64,000 nucleotides of DNA from Clostridium sp. CAG:780 (GCA_000434195.1 HF994471.1:26135-90134), one strand, 5' to 3'. Positions 29,910 to 44,096 are shown, numbered from the stretch's first letter. Notes: generated by a model not told the origin, from the sequence alone. A program made the numbers and translations.

Positions 29910-30749
29910 TTATTTTAATCTAAATTTATGACTTATTTTATAATAATATGGTTTAATATCTGTTAATATATCTTTTACCCATATAATGTTTCCGTCATTA
30001 TCTTTATATTTTATGTTTGGAAATGTTCTTAACATTTTTTCATCTGTAAATATTGTGTTTGACAATTTTTGTACAAATTTGTTTTCTAAAACTTCCTGAC
30101 TTACCATGAGATTTTTGTCTTCTACAAGATTTAAGTCATATTTTTTTGTAAATCTTGTATAAAATACTTGAAGTCCAAAAGCTGTTATTAGCAAATCTAA
30201 AATTAATAATATTGTTCCACCTATTGTTAGTACACTAAATAGTTTTTTAGGAATTTTGTCTATAAATTTTTCTATATATGGATTTATTAACCTCATTAAT
30301 ACTAGTGCTAATATTCCCCAGAATATTGTAAATAACAAACATATTCTGCCATTTATATCAAATGGCATGTTTGAATAATCCCACCATTTAATATGAAATA
30401 CTATTTCTCCTAGCCAGCTTATCACATATTCTACTATTGAGCCTTCTATTGCTCCTGCTAAGAATAATGTCCAGTTTTTCTTTTTAAATTTTTGAAGCCC
30501 TGGTATCATTACTGCCGCACCAAGTCCATATATACAGCAGAATGGTCCGTACAAACAGCTTTGTCTGCTCTCAATTACTCCTTTTGTAAGCATTCCAAAT
30601 ATAGTTTCTATTATAAATCCTAGAAAACTATATATTATAAAGTAGGCTAGTATTCTTTTAAATGTAATTTTTACGACTGGATCTTCTATTACTATTTTGT
30701 TTTGTATTTTTTCTTTTATTTTTTCTTCTAATTTTATTTCATCTATCAT
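29910..30749 (-). CDS. DUF1113-family polytopic membrane protein (putative ABC-transporter type IV family)
   Basis: FLGFIIETIFGMLTKGVIESRQSCLYGPFCCIYGLGAAVMI matches the conserved core of that family. It is not a prepilin peptidase. Confidence 0.45.
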   Translation of the reverse strand: MIDEIKLEEKIKEKIQNKIVIEDPVVKITFKRILAYFIIYSFLGFIIETIFGMLTKGVIESRQSCLYGPFCCIYGLGAAVMIPGLQKFKKKNWTLFLAGAIEGSIVEYVISWLGEIVFHIKWWDYSNMPFDINGRICLLFTIFWGILALVLMRLINPYIEKFIDKIPKKLFSVLTIGGTILLILDLLITAFGLQVFYTRFTKKYDLNLVEDKNLMVSQEVLENKFVQKLSNTIFTDEKMLRTFPNIKYKDNDGNIIWVKDILTDIKPYYYKISHKFRLK

Positions 30750-33950: not shown

Positions 33951-34382
33951 TTATTGTTTTACTATGTAAGCAACTGTTATATATCCTGATTTATTGTATC
34001 CGAAAGATACTTTGTATGTTAGTCCTGTTTTATATGATGCTACTGAATAATCTTTAACTTTATCTGTTGTCCAATTAGCATCATCAGGATCTCTTGTTGC
34101 ATTTCCTGCTGCATCTTCGATTAATATCAATCTAGATGTATCATCTTGATTTACTCTGTTATGATTGATTATTGCACCAACTAATTGTCTTACATCTGTT
34201 CCTGTTCTAACTCCTTCATAGCTTATAAATTCAGCATTATATGCTTGTGCTTTTTGTGGATCTAGGTTTGTTCCTTGTGCTGCTCCTGATGCTTGTTGGT
34301 ATATATACATACCTAACGCGATAATTAAAATTGATAATATTATAGCTCCTGCTATAATTAATGCTTTACTTGCATTCTCCAT
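33951..34382 (-). CDS. Pilin-like paralog 3 (143 aa), a candidate major subunit
   Basis: The N-terminus is MENASKALIIAGAIILSILIIALGMYIY. It has the strongest ribosome-binding site of the paralogs (AAAGGAGGA) and an AT-rich promoter-like region upstream, so I take it as a candidate major subunit. Confidence 0.45.
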   Translation of the reverse strand: MENASKALIIAGAIILSILIIALGMYIYQQASGAAQGTNLDPQKAQAYNAEFISYEGVRTGTDVRQLVGAIINHNRVNQDDTSRLILIEDAAGNATRDPDDANWTTDKVKDYSVASYKTGLTYKVSFGYNKSGYITVAYIVKQ

Positions 34383-34971: not shown

Positions 34972-35487
34972 TTATACTGGTTTAAATATCACTTTTTTTA
35001 CTCTTTTAGTATATTGATCTATTAGAACACTACAACTATAATCTTTTACTTGATAGGTTCCATCTTGCATTGTTCCAATTTCACTTTTCATAAATTTTAT
35101 ATAATCATCTGTTGATAATGTTTCAAAGTTACGCTCTCCATTAATAGCTGATGTATCAATAGATATATAGAATGTTCCTTCCTTCTCTTTTTCTTCAAGA
35201 CTATCCGTTCCAAAGTCATAACTTTGATTGTTTTGTTGTGCAAGATTTGCCAAGCTCACTATCTCACTTGCTTTGCAAGTATTTTGCCAATTTCCATTTT
35301 CATCTTTATAGCTCTCATATTGGGTAAACTTGGTATTAAATTCAGTAATGTTTTTTTCTTCAAGCCTTGCTTGTATTAGAGAACTATAATCCCCAAAAAC
35401 AGTGTATAAATATGCAATCAATGACAATATTAGAATTCCTACTAAAACTGAAGCTGCCATTAATAATGCTTTACTTGCATTTTCCAC
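34972..35487 (-). CDS. Pilin-like paralog 2 (N-terminus MENASKALLMAASVLVGILILSLIAYLY; GTG start)
   Basis: A GTG start at 35487 follows an AAGGAGGA ribosome-binding site. The N-terminus is conserved and the C-terminus is variable. Confidence 0.45.
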   Translation of the reverse strand: MENASKALLMAASVLVGILILSLIAYLYTVFGDYSSLIQARLEEKNITEFNTKFTQYESYKDENGNWQNTCKASEIVSLANLAQQNNQSYDFGTDSLEEKEKEGTFYISIDTSAINGERNFETLSTDDYIKFMKSEIGTMQDGTYQVKDYSCSVLIDQYTKRVKKVIFKPV

Positions 35488-35507: not shown

Positions 35508-36146
35508 TTATTTATCTTTGAACATTATTTTTATAATTCTACCATTTCCAGAATCATATTCTGTTACGTCGTCATATTTAAATGTCTTTCTTGCAAAATC
35601 AGTTTGTTCTTCCACATATTTTTTATAAGTTGTTCTGTTTGTTTTTAATTTGGTATATTCCGATTCAGAGAAATCTGATCTTGCTTTTACTGTCTTTTCA
35701 GTTTCTTTATCACTTAACTTAGACCAGTACGAAATGCTTTTTCCAAATACAGTAATGTCTGCTTCTTTTATCTTTTTTACTAGTTTTTTATATTGTTGGT
35801 CAAGACTTGTACCAGAATATGTTCCTGCTACAAGGTATTGCCCATTAAGCACTCCTGTACTTATTTTTACTTCTAACTCTATTTCTTGATAACCATCTAC
35901 AGCTTTTCTTTCATTATAGTTTATTACTTCATTTGCTAGTGAAAGTATTTCACTTCCATAAACAGTATCTTTAGCATATGACTCAAAATTTATATTAAAT
36001 TTCGATAATTGGCTTGCTTTTTCATTTTTCTGCTCAATATTTTTTTGCTCTCTTATTTGATTATAACCAAATACTAGAAGTGATAATATAAGAACTCCAA
36101 TTAATACACTGGCAGCTATTTCTAAAGCTTTTGTCATATTTTCCAT
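35508..36146 (-). CDS. Pilin-like paralog 1 (N-terminus MENMTKALEIAASVLIGVLILSLLVFGY)
   Basis: The N-terminal about 28 aa are conserved. The gene lies immediately downstream of the TadB/C-like gene. Confidence 0.45.
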   Translation of the reverse strand: MENMTKALEIAASVLIGVLILSLLVFGYNQIREQKNIEQKNEKASQLSKFNINFESYAKDTVYGSEILSLANEVINYNERKAVDGYQEIELEVKISTGVLNGQYLVAGTYSGTSLDQQYKKLVKKIKEADITVFGKSISYWSKLSDKETEKTVKARSDFSESEYTKLKTNRTTYKKYVEEQTDFARKTFKYDDVTEYDSGNGRIIKIMFKDK

Positions 36147-38284: not shown

Positions 38285-40204
38285 TTATGCTTCTTCTTTC
38301 ATCATATCAGCATCTCTATGTGCTTCAATTCCCCAATTTTTCTTAACGAATTTCTTGAACTCTTCAGCATCTGTATCATCCATGTTGTTTAGCATAGCCT
38401 TGATATTTTCTTCTGATATTGGGTTTGTTAGTACATATGTACCATCATGATATTCTAGTATATTTCTGTATTGGTATAATTCTCTGTTTGTTGTTTTTGT
38501 AAAGAACATTGTTGCATTATCCATGAATTTTTCTATTTTCTTTTCTGTTGTTTTTTCTTTTCTGTAATCAAATGTATATTCGTTTCTTTCTTCTACTGGT
38601 ATACATTCTGTTATTCTTTCTATGTATCTTCTTCCTCTGAAGTCCTTTACTAAGTGGATATCAAAGTTTAATACTTGTACAACTTGCTCTTCTGCTGTTC
38701 TTTCATCTTTGAACACTCCTGCTCTAAGCATTGAGTTTCTTAGTGCTGTAACTAAGTCTGGGAATGTTTTAGCGTGGTGAGTAAATAATGTAAATTTAGA
38801 AGCAACCTGTGCAGATTGGATCATCCAAGATGCTACGGGGTCAGTTGCAACCTCACCGATGATGTTAACAGAACCATCAGTCTTTTTCTGAACGTCCAAG
38901 CAGGCCTGTCCAGAAATTGTTTCTGTTTCACGCATTGATAATATGTTTCTTGTTGGATATATTTTTCTTAAGTGAAGCTCGAATGCAGTTTCTGTAATAC
39001 GAAGGTTCATTGTTTCGTATATGTTTTCTATCATCGCCATAAGCATTGTTGTTTTACCACAACCCTGCTCACCAGTAAGCGATATGATTCTTGCTCCTTT
39101 TACTAAGTATTTTAATAAATCTATTGTTTCGTCTTTTCCAGGGAATTTTACTATTTGTTCTAGTGTTGCTCTCTTTACGTCGAACTTTCTTACGAAAAAT
39201 GCCCATGTTTCTGACATGCTTGGTCTAACAACAACGACACGAGAACCGTCTTTCATTTCATTGATTTTGTAACCATTTGTGTCTGATAATTGTCCTGGGT
39301 TATTGAATTTGTATATATTCTGACAAACTCTCTTTAATTCTGCTTCTGTTCCAAATGACAAGAATGCAAGTCTTATTGATTTACCACGGAACATTATCCA
39401 AATACTATCACAAGCACGTGGTACTTTGTGTTCTACTATTTGTCCTAAATAATCTCCATCTGTTTGTGCTACTTGGCTTAAAAAGCTTTCTGGAAGTCCA
39501 GATACACCACCAGATATACCATCTATGTTCATGTCTCTTATTTCATCTATACTGCTATATCCTTTGTAATGTTGATATATTCTTTGTACAACTATGCTTA
39601 ATTTATCTTGGAATGTTAATGCAAAGTTTTCTTTTTCATATATATCTGAAATTTCTTCTGGCGTTATTACGTAAGAAGGTTTTGATTCTCCTGCCACATA
39701 TTTTAACTCGTCTAATTTGTATTTCTTTATTATTTCTGATAAAGCTTCATATCCGAATTCAGATTTATACATATATAGTATAATATCAAATTTATCTTGT
39801 GCTGTTAAAAGTGATGGTACATCAAAAGGAATTGCTTTTGATACATTTATCTCGTCAACTCCATATTCGTTGTAAAGCATGTCATATATTAATTCCTTAA
39901 TATATTTCTTATCATTTACATCTCCATATGTACAGCCTTTTAACGCTTTTTTCAATTCGTATTTCTTGTTCTTTCTTCTTTTTAATTCTTCTTCTGAAAG
40001 ACCTATATCATATAAATTGATTTTTGTGATTTCGTCTAATCTCTTCTTTACAAATTCTGTCATTGTGCTTAATGTGTATGTTGCATCATCTACTTGAATT
40101 TGTTCTTCAACTTCTTGGTTTTGTTTGTTTGTTATGAACTTGTGAACAATCGCAACTGCTACACCTATTACAATGGCCATTAATATTAGATTAGTTATAT
40201 TCAT
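38285..40204 (-). CDS. CpaF/TadA-like secretion ATPase (VirB11 superfamily) with an N-terminal TM anchor and a roughly 300-aa N-terminal extension
   Basis: Walker A LTGEQGCGKTT, a Walker B-like NIIGEVATDP and a His-box-like FTHHAKTFP are present. The N-terminus is MNITNLILMAIVIGVAVAIV. Confidence 0.65.
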   Translation of the reverse strand: MNITNLILMAIVIGVAVAIVHKFITNKQNQEVEEQIQVDDATYTLSTMTEFVKKRLDEITKINLYDIGLSEEELKRRKNKKYELKKALKGCTYGDVNDKKYIKELIYDMLYNEYGVDEINVSKAIPFDVPSLLTAQDKFDIILYMYKSEFGYEALSEIIKKYKLDELKYVAGESKPSYVITPEEISDIYEKENFALTFQDKLSIVVQRIYQHYKGYSSIDEIRDMNIDGISGGVSGLPESFLSQVAQTDGDYLGQIVEHKVPRACDSIWIMFRGKSIRLAFLSFGTEAELKRVCQNIYKFNNPGQLSDTNGYKINEMKDGSRVVVVRPSMSETWAFFVRKFDVKRATLEQIVKFPGKDETIDLLKYLVKGARIISLTGEQGCGKTTMLMAMIENIYETMNLRITETAFELHLRKIYPTRNILSMRETETISGQACLDVQKKTDGSVNIIGEVATDPVASWMIQSAQVASKFTLFTHHAKTFPDLVTALRNSMLRAGVFKDERTAEEQVVQVLNFDIHLVKDFRGRRYIERITECIPVEERNEYTFDYRKEKTTEKKIEKFMDNATMFFTKTTNRELYQYRNILEYHDGTYVLTNPISEENIKAMLNNMDDTDAEEFKKFVKKNWGIEAHRDADMMKEEA

Positions 40205-40228
40205 GGTATTTTCTCCTTTCGCTAAGGC

Positions 40229-41074
40229 TTATACTTTAGCTTGTAGTTCTTTTAACTTAAATAATATGTTATCACATGTCTTTTTTGCTTCTTGTATAAA
40301 TAATACATTTTTATCTGTTTGATCTGTTAAGCTTCTATATTTTAAAAAGTAATCTGCAACTTTTCCTTCTGAAGCTGCTTCGCTGAACAAAGTGTTATAT
40401 GATATTGCCGATATTGTTCTGCTTTCTTTTAAATATCTGCTTGTATTTTTTGTGTTGTATTTTGAATATCTGTCATATTTTCCTAATAATAATAATGATC
40501 GATTCATTTTAAATACTGGATTTTTTTCTCTTAGTCTATCAAATTCGTTCAACGAATCCATGCCTTGCTTAAATGTTATTACTATTGCATCCGATGCTTG
40601 AAGAATTGCTCTTTTGTGTTCTTCCTTCATTCTTTTATCTATATCTATAAAAACTATATTATAATTTTTATCAGCAATTTTAACTAGTTCAGGATAGTAC
40701 TGTGTAATTGAATCATACGCATCTCTATGAGTTGTGCTTGGTGCTACTAGTACATCCAATCTTTCTCTAAAAACTACCTTTGCATAGTCTGCAACAACGT
40801 TTGTAGATGTTCTATTGCTTTGAAGAACTTTTACCAATCCTTCTATTCCGTTGTTCATTCCGACGTCTCTGGTTCTGGTTCCTAATATATCTTTTAACGT
40901 GTCATCTTTTTCTTGTTCCCAAAAGCAATTTTCTACTGTTCTATCTTTGAACCCAGTTGCTACTTCTAATATTTTGAAGTTATGATTGATAGCCATAAGT
41001 GTTGCTATTGCTACCGAAGCCAATGTTTGGCCTGTTTCCTTTTCGCTATCACTCCAAAAAGATACTATTGCCAT
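40229..41074 (-). CDS. CpaE/TadZ-like ParA-fold protein with a degenerate Walker A (paralog 2)
   Basis: VSFWSDSEKETGQTLASVAIATLMA replaces the canonical KGGVGKTT motif, so ATP binding is doubtful. Confidence 0.4.
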   Translation of the reverse strand: MAIVSFWSDSEKETGQTLASVAIATLMAINHNFKILEVATGFKDRTVENCFWEQEKDDTLKDILGTRTRDVGMNNGIEGLVKVLQSNRTSTNVVADYAKVVFRERLDVLVAPSTTHRDAYDSITQYYPELVKIADKNYNIVFIDIDKRMKEEHKRAILQASDAIVITFKQGMDSLNEFDRLREKNPVFKMNRSLLLLGKYDRYSKYNTKNTSRYLKESRTISAISYNTLFSEAASEGKVADYFLKYRSLTDQTDKNVLFIQEAKKTCDNILFKLKELQAKV

Positions 41075-41075
41075 A

Positions 41076-41774
41076 TTACATTCCTCTTTCTAATTGTTTA
41101 AATGCTCTTTTTACAGCATTTGATCTTTCATCATGCACTATTTCTGATGCTAGATAAACGAGTGCATCTTTGTATTCTGTGCTTAATCCTTTATATTTTA
41201 TTTTTTCTGTTCTTTGGTTTTCCATTATTACTTCTTGATCACTTGTTTGTAATGGAAAATATATTTTTTCGTCTTGCCATTTTATTTTATAACCTAATGA
41301 TAGATAGTTTAGATATTCATCTTCCTCATCTGACATTATATTTGAAAAGTATATTTTCGTTAATTGTACCGGTAATTTTATTCCACTCAAAACTTCTAGT
41401 CCTTTTTTTAGTGAGAATAAATCTGCAGAAGTTACAAAATAGTTTCTATTTGCTTCATATATTCCAAAGCTCTCTATTGATTCAGCTTTATCCATGTCTA
41501 TCATTATATAGTCATATGTTAGGGCTGCCGTTTCTGGCATCCCTAAATATCTTTTTATTCCATTGTAGTCTGAAAAGCCAACAGCTACATCTATTCCTTC
41601 ATACTCTGTTACATACGACATCGTCGGGCTAATAACTGGAACAACGTATTTAGCTTTTTGATTTACAGTTGAGTCAATTATTAATACTTTTTTGCCCATC
41701 TCGACTAAAATTCTAGAAACATATATCAAGAAATCTGTTTTGTCAAATGTTCCAATAAAGCCTATTTTCTCCAT
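41076..41774 (-). CDS. CpaE/TadZ-like ParA-fold protein with a degenerate Walker A (paralog 1)
   Basis: IGFIGTFDKTDFLIYVSRILVEMGKKVLIIDST has MinD/ParA-like topology but lacks the GKT/S motif. Confidence 0.4.
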   Translation of the reverse strand: MEKIGFIGTFDKTDFLIYVSRILVEMGKKVLIIDSTVNQKAKYVVPVISPTMSYVTEYEGIDVAVGFSDYNGIKRYLGMPETAALTYDYIMIDMDKAESIESFGIYEANRNYFVTSADLFSLKKGLEVLSGIKLPVQLTKIYFSNIMSDEEDEYLNYLSLGYKIKWQDEKIYFPLQTSDQEVIMENQRTEKIKYKGLSTEYKDALVYLASEIVHDERSNAVKRAFKQLERGM

Positions 41775-41799: not shown

Positions 41800-42705
41800 T
41801 TAATTTCCTGCTAAAGAATCTAAGTAAGATTTTCTTTGTTCTGTTGTTGTTGATATATCTTTTGCTACTCCTGATTCAACTCCTGATGTTGCTTGATTTT
41901 CATCCACATCAGAAACTTCTGAATTTATGCTGTCTCTGATTGATCTATAGGTTTGATATCTATTGTACATTGCTGTTTTAGCTTCTTGTACAACATTTGG
42001 ATTTTGAGTTATTAAGTTGATTGTTTCTGTACTTGGTACATATGTAGGTGTTGCTTTTTCTTGTGTTCCTGGCTCTACATATTTTGCAGTATACAACATT
42101 GCACCTTTCATTTTATAAGCTTCAACTATTGCATTTGATAAAGATACTGTTTCATCTTCTGTTAATTTCATCCATATTGTATTTAAAGAATCAACACCTT
42201 CAATTTGTGGTATTTCTATTTTCTTTTTAGATATAACAATATAATCTAGTCCAGAAGGCATTCTTAGTCTTATATCAATATAATCCTCAGATGCGATTTG
42301 ACTTGATATTTTTATCATATTATATTCTTGAACTCTTAAGTCATTTGTAAGTGGACTGTCTGATTCTGTTATCATAGAATCTGTTATTATTGTTCCTTTT
42401 GTTAAATCTATTTTAGCTATTGTGTTTTCTGTTAAAGCAGATGCTTTTACTGTATTTGCTGGTGCAGCTGATTTATCTGTTGTTACAGTAGCTAATTTAC
42501 TTGCATCTATTGTATCTCCTGATTTAACATCTGTTTTTAAAGCATATGTTATAACAAGGCTTGCTTGTCTTTCTTCTTCAGCCTTCTTCATGTTTAACAT
42601 ACTGTAAAGTAAGAAAGCAACAACGATTGCCATTATTAAAAATGTTATTAATACTCCTAATATAAATGAGTTTCTCGCTTTTTTTTGCATTGGGTTTGTA
42701 GCCAT
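41800..42705 (-). CDS. CpaB/RcpC-like pilus assembly protein (N-terminal TM plus SAF-like domain); first gene of the operon
   Basis: The N-terminal anchor ILGVLITFLIMAIVVAFLLY is followed by a SAF-like region and a second beta-rich domain. AGGAGGAG ribosome-binding site. Confidence 0.4.
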   Translation of the reverse strand: MATNPMQKKARNSFILGVLITFLIMAIVVAFLLYSMLNMKKAEEERQASLVITYALKTDVKSGDTIDASKLATVTTDKSAAPANTVKASALTENTIAKIDLTKGTIITDSMITESDSPLTNDLRVQEYNMIKISSQIASEDYIDIRLRMPSGLDYIVISKKKIEIPQIEGVDSLNTIWMKLTEDETVSLSNAIVEAYKMKGAMLYTAKYVEPGTQEKATPTYVPSTETINLITQNPNVVQEAKTAMYNRYQTYRSIRDSINSEVSDVDENQATSGVESGVAKDISTTTEQRKSYLDSLAGN

Positions 42706-42841: not shown

Positions 42842-43297
42842 TTATCTTCTATACCAATTTATTCCATTTCCATAGCCTCTGTTATTATTACTATTGCACA
42901 TGCAATTTCTGTTTCTATTGCCACATCCACAACCACTTGAGTTGTTGTTGTCATCATTATCGTCGTCATTATCATTGTTTATAATTTCGTTTGCATCTAA
43001 TGTATCTGTTCTTATACGGTTTGCCCTTATGTTATTTGCTCTTAGATTTCTTATAGTAAGTCCATCATTGTCTACAACTCTGCATATAAACTGAACAATA
43101 CTTGCTACAATAAAAGCTAAGATTGTATACACTATAGCATTTACTAAGAAAGATTCATCAAATGCAGCAAATGCTACAATTAAGTATATTGCAAAAAATG
43201 TTGCCGCTACTAACAATGGACATTTAAGTATTTTTTGGAACACTACTGCCAATATTATTGTTGCTATTGGTAAAGCAAAAAATAATAATAAATCCAT
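42842..43297 (-). CDS. Polytopic membrane protein with a C-terminal Asn/Asp-rich and Cys/Gly-rich tail (SSGCGCGNRNRNCMCNSNNNRGYGNG)
   Basis: The likely start MDLLLFFALPIATIIL is at 43297 with an AAAGGAG ribosome-binding site. There are four transmembrane helices. The tail motif resembles the tiny Cys/Gly peptides at 60377-60646. Confidence 0.45.
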   Translation of the reverse strand: MDLLLFFALPIATIILAVVFQKILKCPLLVAATFFAIYLIVAFAAFDESFLVNAIVYTILAFIVASIVQFICRVVDNDGLTIRNLRANNIRANRIRTDTLDANEIINNDNDDDNDDNNNSSGCGCGNRNRNCMCNSNNNRGYGNGINWYRR

Positions 43298-43358
43298 ACT
43301 AATTACTCCTTTTATCTTTTTTATATATAATATGGTTTTATTATTATTTATGTTACTC

Positions 43359-44096
43359 TTAGTCATATTTAACTTCTACTAGATAAAGACCATGCGCTGG
43401 AAGCGTCTTTCCTGCTCTTTGCCTATCTTTTGACTCTATTATTTCTGGTATTTCTTCTGGTCTAATTTTTCCAAGTCCTACATCTAATAGTGTTCCTGAT
43501 ATTATTCTAACCATGTTATACAAGAATCCATTTCCTGTAAGTTCTATGATTATTTTTTCTCCTTCTTGTTTTACTATCGCTTTGTAAATTGTTCTAACAC
43601 TATTTTTCGAACTAGTCCCGCTCGATTTAAAAGCCTTAAAATCGTGTTCTCCTTCAAAATACTTAGAAGCTTGTTTCATTTTTTCAACATCTAGTTTGAA
43701 TGGATATGAATATTCTAAATTTCTATATATTGCAGTTCCACATTTTGAATTGTTTATTATGTATCTATACGTTTTGTGTTTTGCATTATATCTACTGTGA
43801 AACCTCTCATCAACCTCTTCTGCCTCTTTTATCACTATGCTATTTTTCAACTGTGAATTTATTGCAAGAGGTATTTTTTCTATTGATATTTGAGAATTTG
43901 TCTTAAAATTTGCTACTTGTCCAAGTGCGTGAACTCCTGCATCAGTTCTACCTGAACCAATTAGATCAACTTCTTCTTTTGTAATATTATAAATAGCTCT
44001 TTCTATTTCTCCTTGAATATTTAGTTTATTGGGTTGCTTTTGCCATCCATTATAACATTTTCCATCATATTCTATTGTTAATTTTATATTTCTCAT
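43359..44096 (-). CDS. truA: tRNA pseudouridine(38-40) synthase TruA
   Basis: MRNIKLTIEYDGKCYNGWQKQPN and GSGRTDAGVHALGQVANF are TruA motifs. Confidence 0.9.
   Translation of the reverse strand: MRNIKLTIEYDGKCYNGWQKQPNKLNIQGEIERAIYNITKEEVDLIGSGRTDAGVHALGQVANFKTNSQISIEKIPLAINSQLKNSIVIKEAEEVDERFHSRYNAKHKTYRYIINNSKCGTAIYRNLEYSYPFKLDVEKMKQASKYFEGEHDFKAFKSSGTSSKNSVRTIYKAIVKQEGEKIIIELTGNGFLYNMVRIISGTLLDVGLGKIRPEEIPEIIESKDRQRAGKTLPAHGLYLVEVKYD

Follow-up and report, generated by a model that had tools for sequence, protein, structure and literature searches.

A 64,000-nt stretch of DNA from Clostridium sp. CAG:780 (GCA_000434195.1, HF994471.1:26135-90134), referred to here as the window, carries a 12-gene operon for a predicted Tad-type pilus machine. 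Its genes run in the order CpaB-like protein, ParA1, ParA2, membrane-anchored ATPase, fused TadC/TadB platform protein and seven pilin-like proteins, and are packed tightly with intergenic gaps of 1-85 nt. We focus on positions 38285-41774, where an earlier note made from the sequence alone had placed a secretion ATPase together with two altered ParA/MinD-like proteins, and where three co-directional minus-strand open reading frames (ORFs) of 232, 281 and 639 amino acids (aa) are indeed found. They encode the proteins we call ParA1, ParA2 and the ATPase.

The ATPase belongs to the TadA/CpaF family, as had been proposed. Its sequence alone matches CpaF structures in the Protein Data Bank (PDB) with E=2.7e-10, and a profile of 38 diverse relatives reaches them with E=8.5e-24 over residues 267-533, ahead of archaeal FlaI, PilT, GspE and VirB11 (87 bits for CpaF, 46 for FlaI and 38 for PilT). 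The best NCBIfam match is the TadA family TIGR03819 (E=2.6e-9, far under its cut-off). The Pfam domain T2SSE (PF00437) scores 24.7 bits against a gathering cut-off of 24.9; 27 of the 38 family members match it at E<=0.001, and nearly all close homologues carry a precomputed PF00437 match. Invariant among the 38 members are G378, G381, G383 and K384 of the Walker A motif, E409, E451 of Walker B, H477 of the His box and several arginines, with E405 nearly so. By every sequence criterion this is a catalytically complete TadA/CpaF-family ATPase and, as predicted from these residues, a working enzyme. CpaF (PDB 8rkd, 9e24), its best solved relative, shares the Walker A motif, the Asp-box and Walker B glutamates, the His box and the arginines.

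TadA/CpaF proteins are normally soluble and recruited to the platform, whereas this protein has a conserved transmembrane (TM) helix, a difference of architecture and not of catalytic family. The helix, LILMAIVIGVAVAIVHKFI, which the earlier note had quoted, occupies residues 6-24; its mean Kyte-Doolittle hydropathy is 2.61 over 19 residues, and no other segment of the ATPase is of this kind. Its conservation was followed in a one-genome-per-species scan, seeded with an alignment of 12 sequences, which gave at least 451 relatives and from which 80 loci were kept, all from uncultured Clostridia with 25-32% GC (the near loci). Of these 80 orthologues, each from another species, 79 have the helix; among 119 full-length representatives of 50%-identity clusters 96 have it and 23 lack it. 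On average 0.2 lysines or arginines stand before the helix and 3.2 in the 15 residues after it, a bias that by the positive-inside rule predicts an N-out/C-in anchor, so that the five N-terminal residues would lie outside and all of the enzyme on the cytoplasmic side.

The long extra N-terminal domain that had been described is also there. It comprises about 240 residues after the anchor (about 25-265), for which profile and family searches found no match in Pfam or the PDB and which the family conserves, with C91, F127, F139, D200, K214 and G215 invariant. The CpaF-like N- and C-terminal domains follow at residues 267-533. CpaF has a disordered region and a three-helix bundle where the window protein has its anchor and these 240 residues, and a further difference is the C-terminal extension of about 100 residues (about 540-639). 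An exhaustive search of representatives at 50% identity gave 378 ATPase clusters at E<1e-30, mostly of 600-650 aa, whose alignments start at residues 3-7.

Direct searches with the window sequences of ParA1 and ParA2 (Pfam, NCBIfam, phmmer against the PDB) returned no significant match, and their ParA/MinD fold was assigned from family profiles and predicted structures, not from single-sequence search. The profiles were built from orthologues in the loci of other species. For ParA2, AlphaFold2 gave a model with a predicted local distance difference test (pLDDT) score of 84.9 and a predicted template modelling (pTM) score of 0.84. Foldseek matched this model first to the ParA family structure 3ea0 (E=1.3e-9) and then to MinD, ParA, Soj, BcsQ and FlhG, all with probability 1.0. 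The profile of 40 orthologues finds 3ea0 as well (E=9e-4), nine of the 40 match PF13614, and an hhalign comparison with an E. coli MinD sequence entered by hand runs end to end over 211 columns (E=4e-4). On these models and profiles ParA2 is a TadZ-type ParA/MinD-fold protein in the tadZ position, immediately upstream of tadA.

The same alignment, with this hand-entered MinD sequence, sets E11-K-E-T-G15-Q16-T17 of ParA2 on K11-G-G-V-G15-K16-T17 of MinD and S39-T40 on the switch-I DxD. Instead of KGGxGK[ST] the family loop reads [KR][KE][EQ]TG[QK]T; the Walker B aspartate D144 is invariant. Among 81 ParA2 sequences, G15 is kept in 73 and T17 in 70, position 16 holds Q in 43 sequences and K in another 32, and position 11 is K in 34 and R in 12. 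G-K-T occurs in 32 of the 81 orthologues and a formal GxxxxGK[ST] motif (for example GKEQTGKT) in 12. The G-G pair is absent from all 81, its place taken by charged or polar residues, and the window species lacks both lysines (E11, Q16). A check of the orthologues for an intact KGGxGK[ST] found none in the 81 ParA2 or in 79 ParA1 sequences.

The earlier note had described the P-loops of both small proteins as replaced. The loops it quoted are present, and neither is the canonical deviant Walker A motif, but for ParA2 the claim was overstated. The TadZ family consensus, K/R-G-G-x-G-x-S/T, already lacks the Walker lysine (bioRxiv 10.64898/2026.07.08.737194), so the missing second lysine is typical of TadZ. 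The G-G pair of that consensus is lost, and ParA2 of the window has E-K-E-T-G-Q-T; the loop of its distant relatives, S-P-x-H-G-Q-x-G-x-T, is nearer to it. ParA2 also starts with strand 1 at residue 2 and has passed the loop by residue 17, and at 281 aa has no room for the receiver domain of TadZ (the atypical receiver domain, ARD, or REC). No basic amphipathic bias is seen at its C-terminus. The description that fits ParA2 best is that of a TadZ orthologue lacking the receiver domain, with a loop that has diverged further.

ParA1 is, on its predicted structure, a second and much more divergent member of the ParA/MinD fold class. Its model has a pLDDT of 67.9 and a pTM of 0.71, with residues 144-190 unmodelled, and is probably limited by the shallow AlphaFold2 input alignments (77% and 86% mean column identity for the two proteins). 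The top Foldseek matches are all SIMIBI-class proteins (NifH, MinD, FlhG, ParF, FleN; best E=3.7e-5, TM-scores 0.4-0.48), so that the fold searches place both small proteins in the class the earlier note had named. A RecA/KaiC fold of the FlaH kind was considered for ParA1 and is unsupported, with no RecA/KaiC protein among the top 50 fold matches of either small protein. The family profile aligns with MinD (4v02) at E=0.011, setting G8-A-Y-D-K12-T on G-G-V-G-K-T and Y-D-x-h-h-h-D93 on the Walker B strand.

In ParA1 the P-loop is replaced by a motif of its own, G-x-[YF]-D-K-[TK]-D, or [IV]G[AVGS][YF]DK[TK]. Counts over the 79 sequences are 78 for G8, 75 for D11, 78 for K12 and 74 for D14; D34, T36, D93 and D95 are invariant, D34-x-T36 standing for DxD when aligned with the same hand-entered MinD sequence and D93 being the retained Walker B aspartate. 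Such near-invariance points to a retained function, nucleotide-linked or not, and to a conserved variant of the loop, not a decayed one. Two features that define an active ParA/MinD ATPase, the KGGxxGK[ST] motif with its signature lysine and the switch-I DxD, are thus missing from both small proteins, which keep only the Walker B aspartate (D144 and D93).

Outside the loop, ParA1 has two further elements of interest. Its C-terminus, AVKRAFKQLERGM, is predicted to be helical, no other part of ParA1 has so high a hydrophobic moment (0.93), and a [KR][KR]-hydrophobic-hydrophobic-[KR] pattern is found there in near and distant members alike. This basic amphipathic helix resembles the membrane-targeting helix of MinD and the helix predicted for CpaE. 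Residues 144-190 contain the invariant positions E150, D152, Y154, G161, K163, W166, Y172, F173 and P174, yet are modelled in the monomer with a pLDDT of only 26-46; they are a candidate partner-binding element that may fold on binding. As in ParA2, strand 1 starts at residue 2, and 232 aa leave no room for a receiver domain.

The arrangement of the three genes is strongly conserved. ParA2 is present in all 80 near loci and ParA1 in 78, and the order ParA1-ParA2-ATPase holds in 78 of the 78 loci with all three genes, with median gaps of 5 nt between ParA1 and ParA2 and 20 nt between ParA2 and the ATPase. Identity ranges from 35 to 72% for ParA1, from 30 to 59% for ParA2 and from 75 to 92% for the ATPase; evolution is much faster in the two small proteins than in the motor. 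The CpaB-like protein, with an N-terminal TM segment at residues 15-33 by hydropathy, is kept in 77 of the 80 loci. The platform protein is kept in 75 at 55-85% identity; a Pfam search of the window protein gave no match, with nothing for T2SSF at E<0.1, and the literature describes it as a fusion of TadC (first half) and TadB (second half) (PMC11680825).

A metagenome scan seeded with distant representatives added 21 loci. In at least 13 of them the trio lies between a CpaB-like gene and a fused platform gene with pilin-like genes, and 11 of these are on contigs of 34-57% GC, which suggests that the architecture is older and probably broader than the clade TANB77 discussed below. Platform equivalents of 660-710 aa follow the ATPase in distant loci, some of which have 4-nt gene overlaps within the trio, and the loops read G-x-x-DK-[RTS] in ParA1 and, as given above, S-P-x-H-G-Q-x-G-x-T in ParA2. 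In two of the loci (L097:2564-4057, L098:1625-3256) acidic or low-complexity tails bring the ParA2-like protein to a length of 497 and 543 aa, and the first tail ends in two CxxC...CxxC zinc-ribbon motifs; the ParA1-like gene is still separate in both, and no ParA1-ParA2 fusion was seen there. In three others (L085:2110-3543, L086:1953-3479, L089:1435-2913) an ORF resembling a Hanks-type Ser/Thr kinase (with G-x-G-x-x-G...VYKA at its N-terminus) lies directly upstream of the CpaB-like gene, which hints that the machines are regulated by phosphorylation in some lineages.

Much of this system has been described before. In 2024 a 'TANB77 pilus gene cluster' was reported as proteins 927-938 of the uncultured gut clade TANB77 (Nat Commun 2024;15:10726, PMC11680825). 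Its gene order is identical to that of the window operon, the annotations agree, and four of the five machinery genes agree in size to within one residue (Table 1). Pilin-like proteins correspond too, with 171 against 170, 143 against 143 and 176 against 178 aa, while lengths differ for the CpaB-like protein (301 against 358 aa) and the first pilin (212 against 165 aa). Both hosts are of an uncultured, low-GC, small-genome lineage of gut Clostridia. Hundreds of gut-metagenome contigs encode a protein with 100% identity to the window ATPase, under the name 'Clostridium sp. CAG:780' AAA ATPase or 'pilus assembly protein CpaF'. Judged by order, sizes and annotation, the window operon is the same system in what appears to be another species of the clade, and nothing structural differs.

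The cluster, the tandem ParA-like pair and the TM helix of the ATPase are therefore already in the literature, and the observation is mostly not new; novelty is low because the system belongs to the published cluster. That study contains no occurrence of 'Walker', does not mention the state of the P-loops and does not discuss the anchor of the ATPase (PMC11680825). Our literature search found no paper linking CAG-780 with TANB77 and none on a TM-anchored TadA. What is added here is incremental and consists of the analysis of motifs, the reasoning on topology and the wider distribution. The last of these bears on the published view of the cluster as exclusive to TANB77 (PMC11680825).

The closest functional models are TadZ and CpaE. 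TadZ of E. rectale is cited as binding ATP to dimerise (in PMC13170226). In Caulobacter, cryo-electron tomography showed densities around the CpaF hexamer that were fitted with six CpaE homodimers, contacting the membrane by a C-terminal amphipathic helix and each other by their REC domains (PMC13170226). ParA2 shares with TadZ/CpaE the ParA/MinD fold and the gene position upstream of tadA, and most of its wider family lacks the lysine of GK[ST]. Unlike TadZ/CpaE, neither ParA1 nor ParA2 has the N-terminal atypical receiver domain, and two distinct proteins stand here in place of one that forms homodimers. Bdellovibrio bacteriovorus has an ARD-less TadZ module fused to TadA, named TadZA (bioRxiv 10.64898/2026.07.08.737194), which shows that TadZ can do without a receiver domain where its coupling is secured by other means. 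That protein is a covalent fusion in a diderm with RomR-dependent polar targeting, whereas the window has separate genes, a second ParA-fold protein and a membrane-anchored ATPase.

A looser parallel is the archaellum, likened to the trio by analogy only. FlaH/ArlH is a small P-loop protein that binds ATP without productive hydrolysis and forms a ring that associates with the hexameric FlaI motor. FlaH is RecA/KaiC-like, not SIMIBI/MinD-like; FlaI is the second-best solved relative of the window ATPase.

Taken together, we favour the view that a Tad-type (type IVc-like) pilus machine of a monoderm lineage of gut Clostridia has ParA1, ParA2 and the ATPase as the module on its cytoplasmic face, with the ParA pair acting as a scaffold that does not hydrolyse ATP in the manner of MinD, and give it a probability of about 0.65. 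ParA1 and ParA2 would be working partners, probably joined in a heterodimer that stands in for the ATP-sandwich homodimer of TadZ/CpaE. By analogy with the Caulobacter assembly, this scaffold may surround the ATPase hexamer and couple it to the fused TadC/B platform, ParA1 making the membrane contact through its C-terminal helix and ParA2 providing the TadZ-like face. Neither protein keeps the catalytic set of MinD and the loop of ParA2 is free to vary, so ATP hydrolysis is probably not what drives assembly. The anchor of the ATPase would make its recruitment to the membrane constitutive, and not dependent on nucleotide or on TadZ. We infer both the non-catalytic status of the pair and its heterodimeric state from motifs and analogy.

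Several observations weigh against this picture. Loss of hydrolysis is argued from motifs, and pili themselves have not been seen in the uncultured TANB77 clade, where the system is known from its genes. The operon itself contains no visible prepilin peptidase gene (Peptidase_A24/TadV). The structure predicted for ParA1 is moderate in quality (pLDDT 68), and by sequence the protein connects with MinD marginally (E about 0.01). At one locus (L100:67-2486) an ATPase of 534 aa has no TM helix and is nonetheless preceded by a lysine-less ParA2-like gene, so that loop degeneracy is not simply a result of tethering; the idea that the P-loop decayed as a consequence of an anchored ATPase is weakened by it. 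The remaining objections concern the nucleotide sites and form the case for the strongest alternative.

According to that alternative, one or both ParA-fold proteins are still nucleotide switches that bind ATP, and perhaps hydrolyse it slowly, for TadZ-like dimerisation through non-canonical loops, in which case 'pseudo-ATPase' would strictly be the wrong term. TadZ has no Walker lysine and is nevertheless cited as ATP-binding, and both window proteins keep the Walker B aspartate. In ParA1 the lysine K12 and D93 rank as invariant and G8, D11 and D14 as nearly so, a conservation that implies a ligand or a partner and makes an inert loop improbable. G-K-T persists in the 32 ParA2 orthologues mentioned above, and some keep both lysines. 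Against this, the glycine pair that shapes the phosphate loop is replaced in every ParA2 orthologue, at position 16 Q and K are freely exchanged, as would be the case for a dispensable lysine, and the window protein has neither lysine. Switch-I aspartates are missing from both proteins, and the aspartate that takes the place of glycine before the ParA1 lysine would repel phosphate. We regard retained nucleotide switching as possible, though clearly less probable than a scaffold without MinD-type hydrolysis.

The earlier note had further suggested that the pair is analogous to TadZ but duplicated. The analogy held in so far as both are predicted ParA-fold proteins and ParA2 sits in the tadZ position; the duplication did not. 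Adjacent genes on one strand with the same fold class would fit a recent tandem duplication of a single TadZ gene with one copy decaying, but hhalign joins the two family profiles over only 39 N-terminal columns with 6% probability, and the proteins are unlike in length, loop motif and C-terminus. They are already distinct in the most distant loci found (34-57% GC), and being full-length in 78-80 species neither is a pseudogene. Judging from these profiles ParA1 and ParA2 are not recent duplicates, and this origin is very unlikely.

Slightly less credible still is that the two proteins are unrelated to the pilus and only happen to lie nearby, whether as a partition system, as a BY-kinase-like regulator or as a Get3/ArsA-like factor. 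The ParA2 profile weakly matches CapB (E=0.0013) and also Get3 (E about 0.015), and the best fold match of ParA1 is NifH, which could be read in this way. Their place between the cpaB-like and tadA-like genes, however, is invariant in all 78 near loci and in at least 13 distant ones, the gaps are a few nt or even overlaps, the position is the canonical one of tadZ, and no ParB, centromere, polysaccharide or arsenic genes lie in the neighbourhood. That the loops come from sequencing or assembly error and the TM helix from an over-extended start codon can practically be dismissed, since beyond the origin of the window in a metagenome-assembled lineage nothing was found in its favour, while the exact 281-aa ParA2 is indexed in 277 assembly-collection blocks (the six places shown being six different samples with the same neighbours), the loop motifs are conserved across 80 species, the TM helix recurs among orthologues and representatives with a consistent charge bias, and DeepTMHMM likewise gives one helix in PMC11680825.

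A bolder proposal can be built on the scaffold model. Together with its fused TadC/B platform, the trio may mark out a separate subclass of Tad-like machines that is widespread in monoderms beyond TANB77 (26-57% GC). Here an obligate, nucleotide-independent pseudo-ATPase heterodimer would take the place of the TadZ homodimer, and the motor would be tethered permanently to the membrane. We consider this tentative and rather doubtful in its full form.

Table 1. Features of the pilus operon in the window, with the corresponding proteins of the TANB77 pilus gene cluster (PMC11680825). TMH, transmembrane helix.
Feature	Position	Strand	Basis	TANB77 counterpart
CpaB/RcpC-like protein, 301 aa, first gene of the operon	41800..42705	-	TIGR03177 pilus_cpaB E=1.7e-9; Pfam SAF E=2.8e-4	927: 358 aa, CpaB
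ParA1, 232 aa, predicted divergent ParA/MinD-class protein	41076..41774	-	AlphaFold2, Foldseek, profile against MinD	928: 231 aa, COG1192, TadZ structural homology
ParA1 P-loop equivalent GFIGTFDKTD, residues 5-14	41733..41762	-	translation; column counts; alignment to MinD GGVGKT	
ParA2, 281 aa, predicted TadZ/CpaE-type ParA/MinD fold	40229..41074	-	AlphaFold2, Foldseek, profiles	929: 280 aa, COG1192, CpaE structural homology
ParA2 P-loop equivalent SDSEKETGQT, residues 8-17	41024..41053	-	translation; column counts	
TadA/CpaF-family secretion ATPase, 639 aa	38285..40204	-	PDB CpaF match, T2SSE, invariant catalytic residues	930: 640 aa, COG4962, 1 TMH (DeepTMHMM), TadA/CpaF
ATPase N-terminal TM anchor LILMAIVIGVAVAIVHKFI, residues 6-24	40133..40189	-	hydropathy, conservation	
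ATPase Walker A motif GEQGCGKT, intact	39050..39073	-	translation, family conservation	
Polytopic platform protein, 694 aa	36162..38246	-	at least 7 hydrophobic segments	931: 693 aa, 8 TMH, TadC then TadB
Seven pilin-like genes: 212, 171, 158, 143, 229, 176 and 603 aa	30764..36146	-	a single N-terminal TM helix each	932-938: pilin-like, various sizes

Some observations on the remaining genes complete the description. Three of the pilin-like paralogues (35508-36146, 34972-35487 and 33951-34382, minus strand) start with MEN[AM][ST]KAL followed by the TM helix, a fourth begins MENAVEAS, and at another locus (L083:10047-13459) five copies of the MENASKALIIAGAILL paralogue stand in a row. Only 14 nt past the 603-aa pilin gene begins a gene for a 279-aa PF06541 membrane protein ('putative ABC-transporter type IV'; 29910-30749, minus strand), which may for this reason be co-transcribed with the operon. 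Just upstream of the operon, a gene for a DUF2651 membrane protein (42842-43366, minus strand) overlaps the end of truA by 8 nt; it encodes 174 aa from the first start codon or 151 aa in the form used by gene callers, and ends in an unusual tail rich in Asn, Asp, Cys and Gly, NNDNDDDNDDNNNSSGCGCGNRNRNCMCNSNNNRGYG.

The operon is flanked by ordinary chromosomal genes (truA, cdaA, a GH15 enzyme, a beta-CASP RNase and a GH3 enzyme), and GC content is about 29% throughout the window. Nearly all long ORFs of positions 1-64000 are on the minus strand. Of 32 two-kb segments 31 have a negative GC skew; the one that does not, at 24-26 kb, is the site of two plus-strand ORFs. Strand bias and skew suggest that the whole window is probably co-oriented with replication in one replichore.

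The interpretation of the earlier note is right in outline and what it noticed is more than chance, so that we regard it as partly supported; none of the results overturns current understanding. The 2024 study tied the pilus cluster to better responses to checkpoint immunotherapy through a 621-aa pilin (PMC11680825), whose counterpart in the window is the 603-aa gene. A clearer picture of its construction is of use to anyone reconstituting this surface organelle of an uncultured organism in a heterologous host, and names become available for thousands of 'hypothetical' gut-metagenome proteins. The ATPase provides a family-wide case of a secretion ATPase that bears its own membrane anchor. The ParA2 family offers a graded natural series of TadZ-like loops, from GK(E/Q)xTGKT down to SDSEKETGQT, in which to ask what the nucleotide site of TadZ is for. 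If the trio did define a distinct subclass, it would amount to a natural experiment, the recruitment of a type IV filament motor having become hard-wired instead of regulated.

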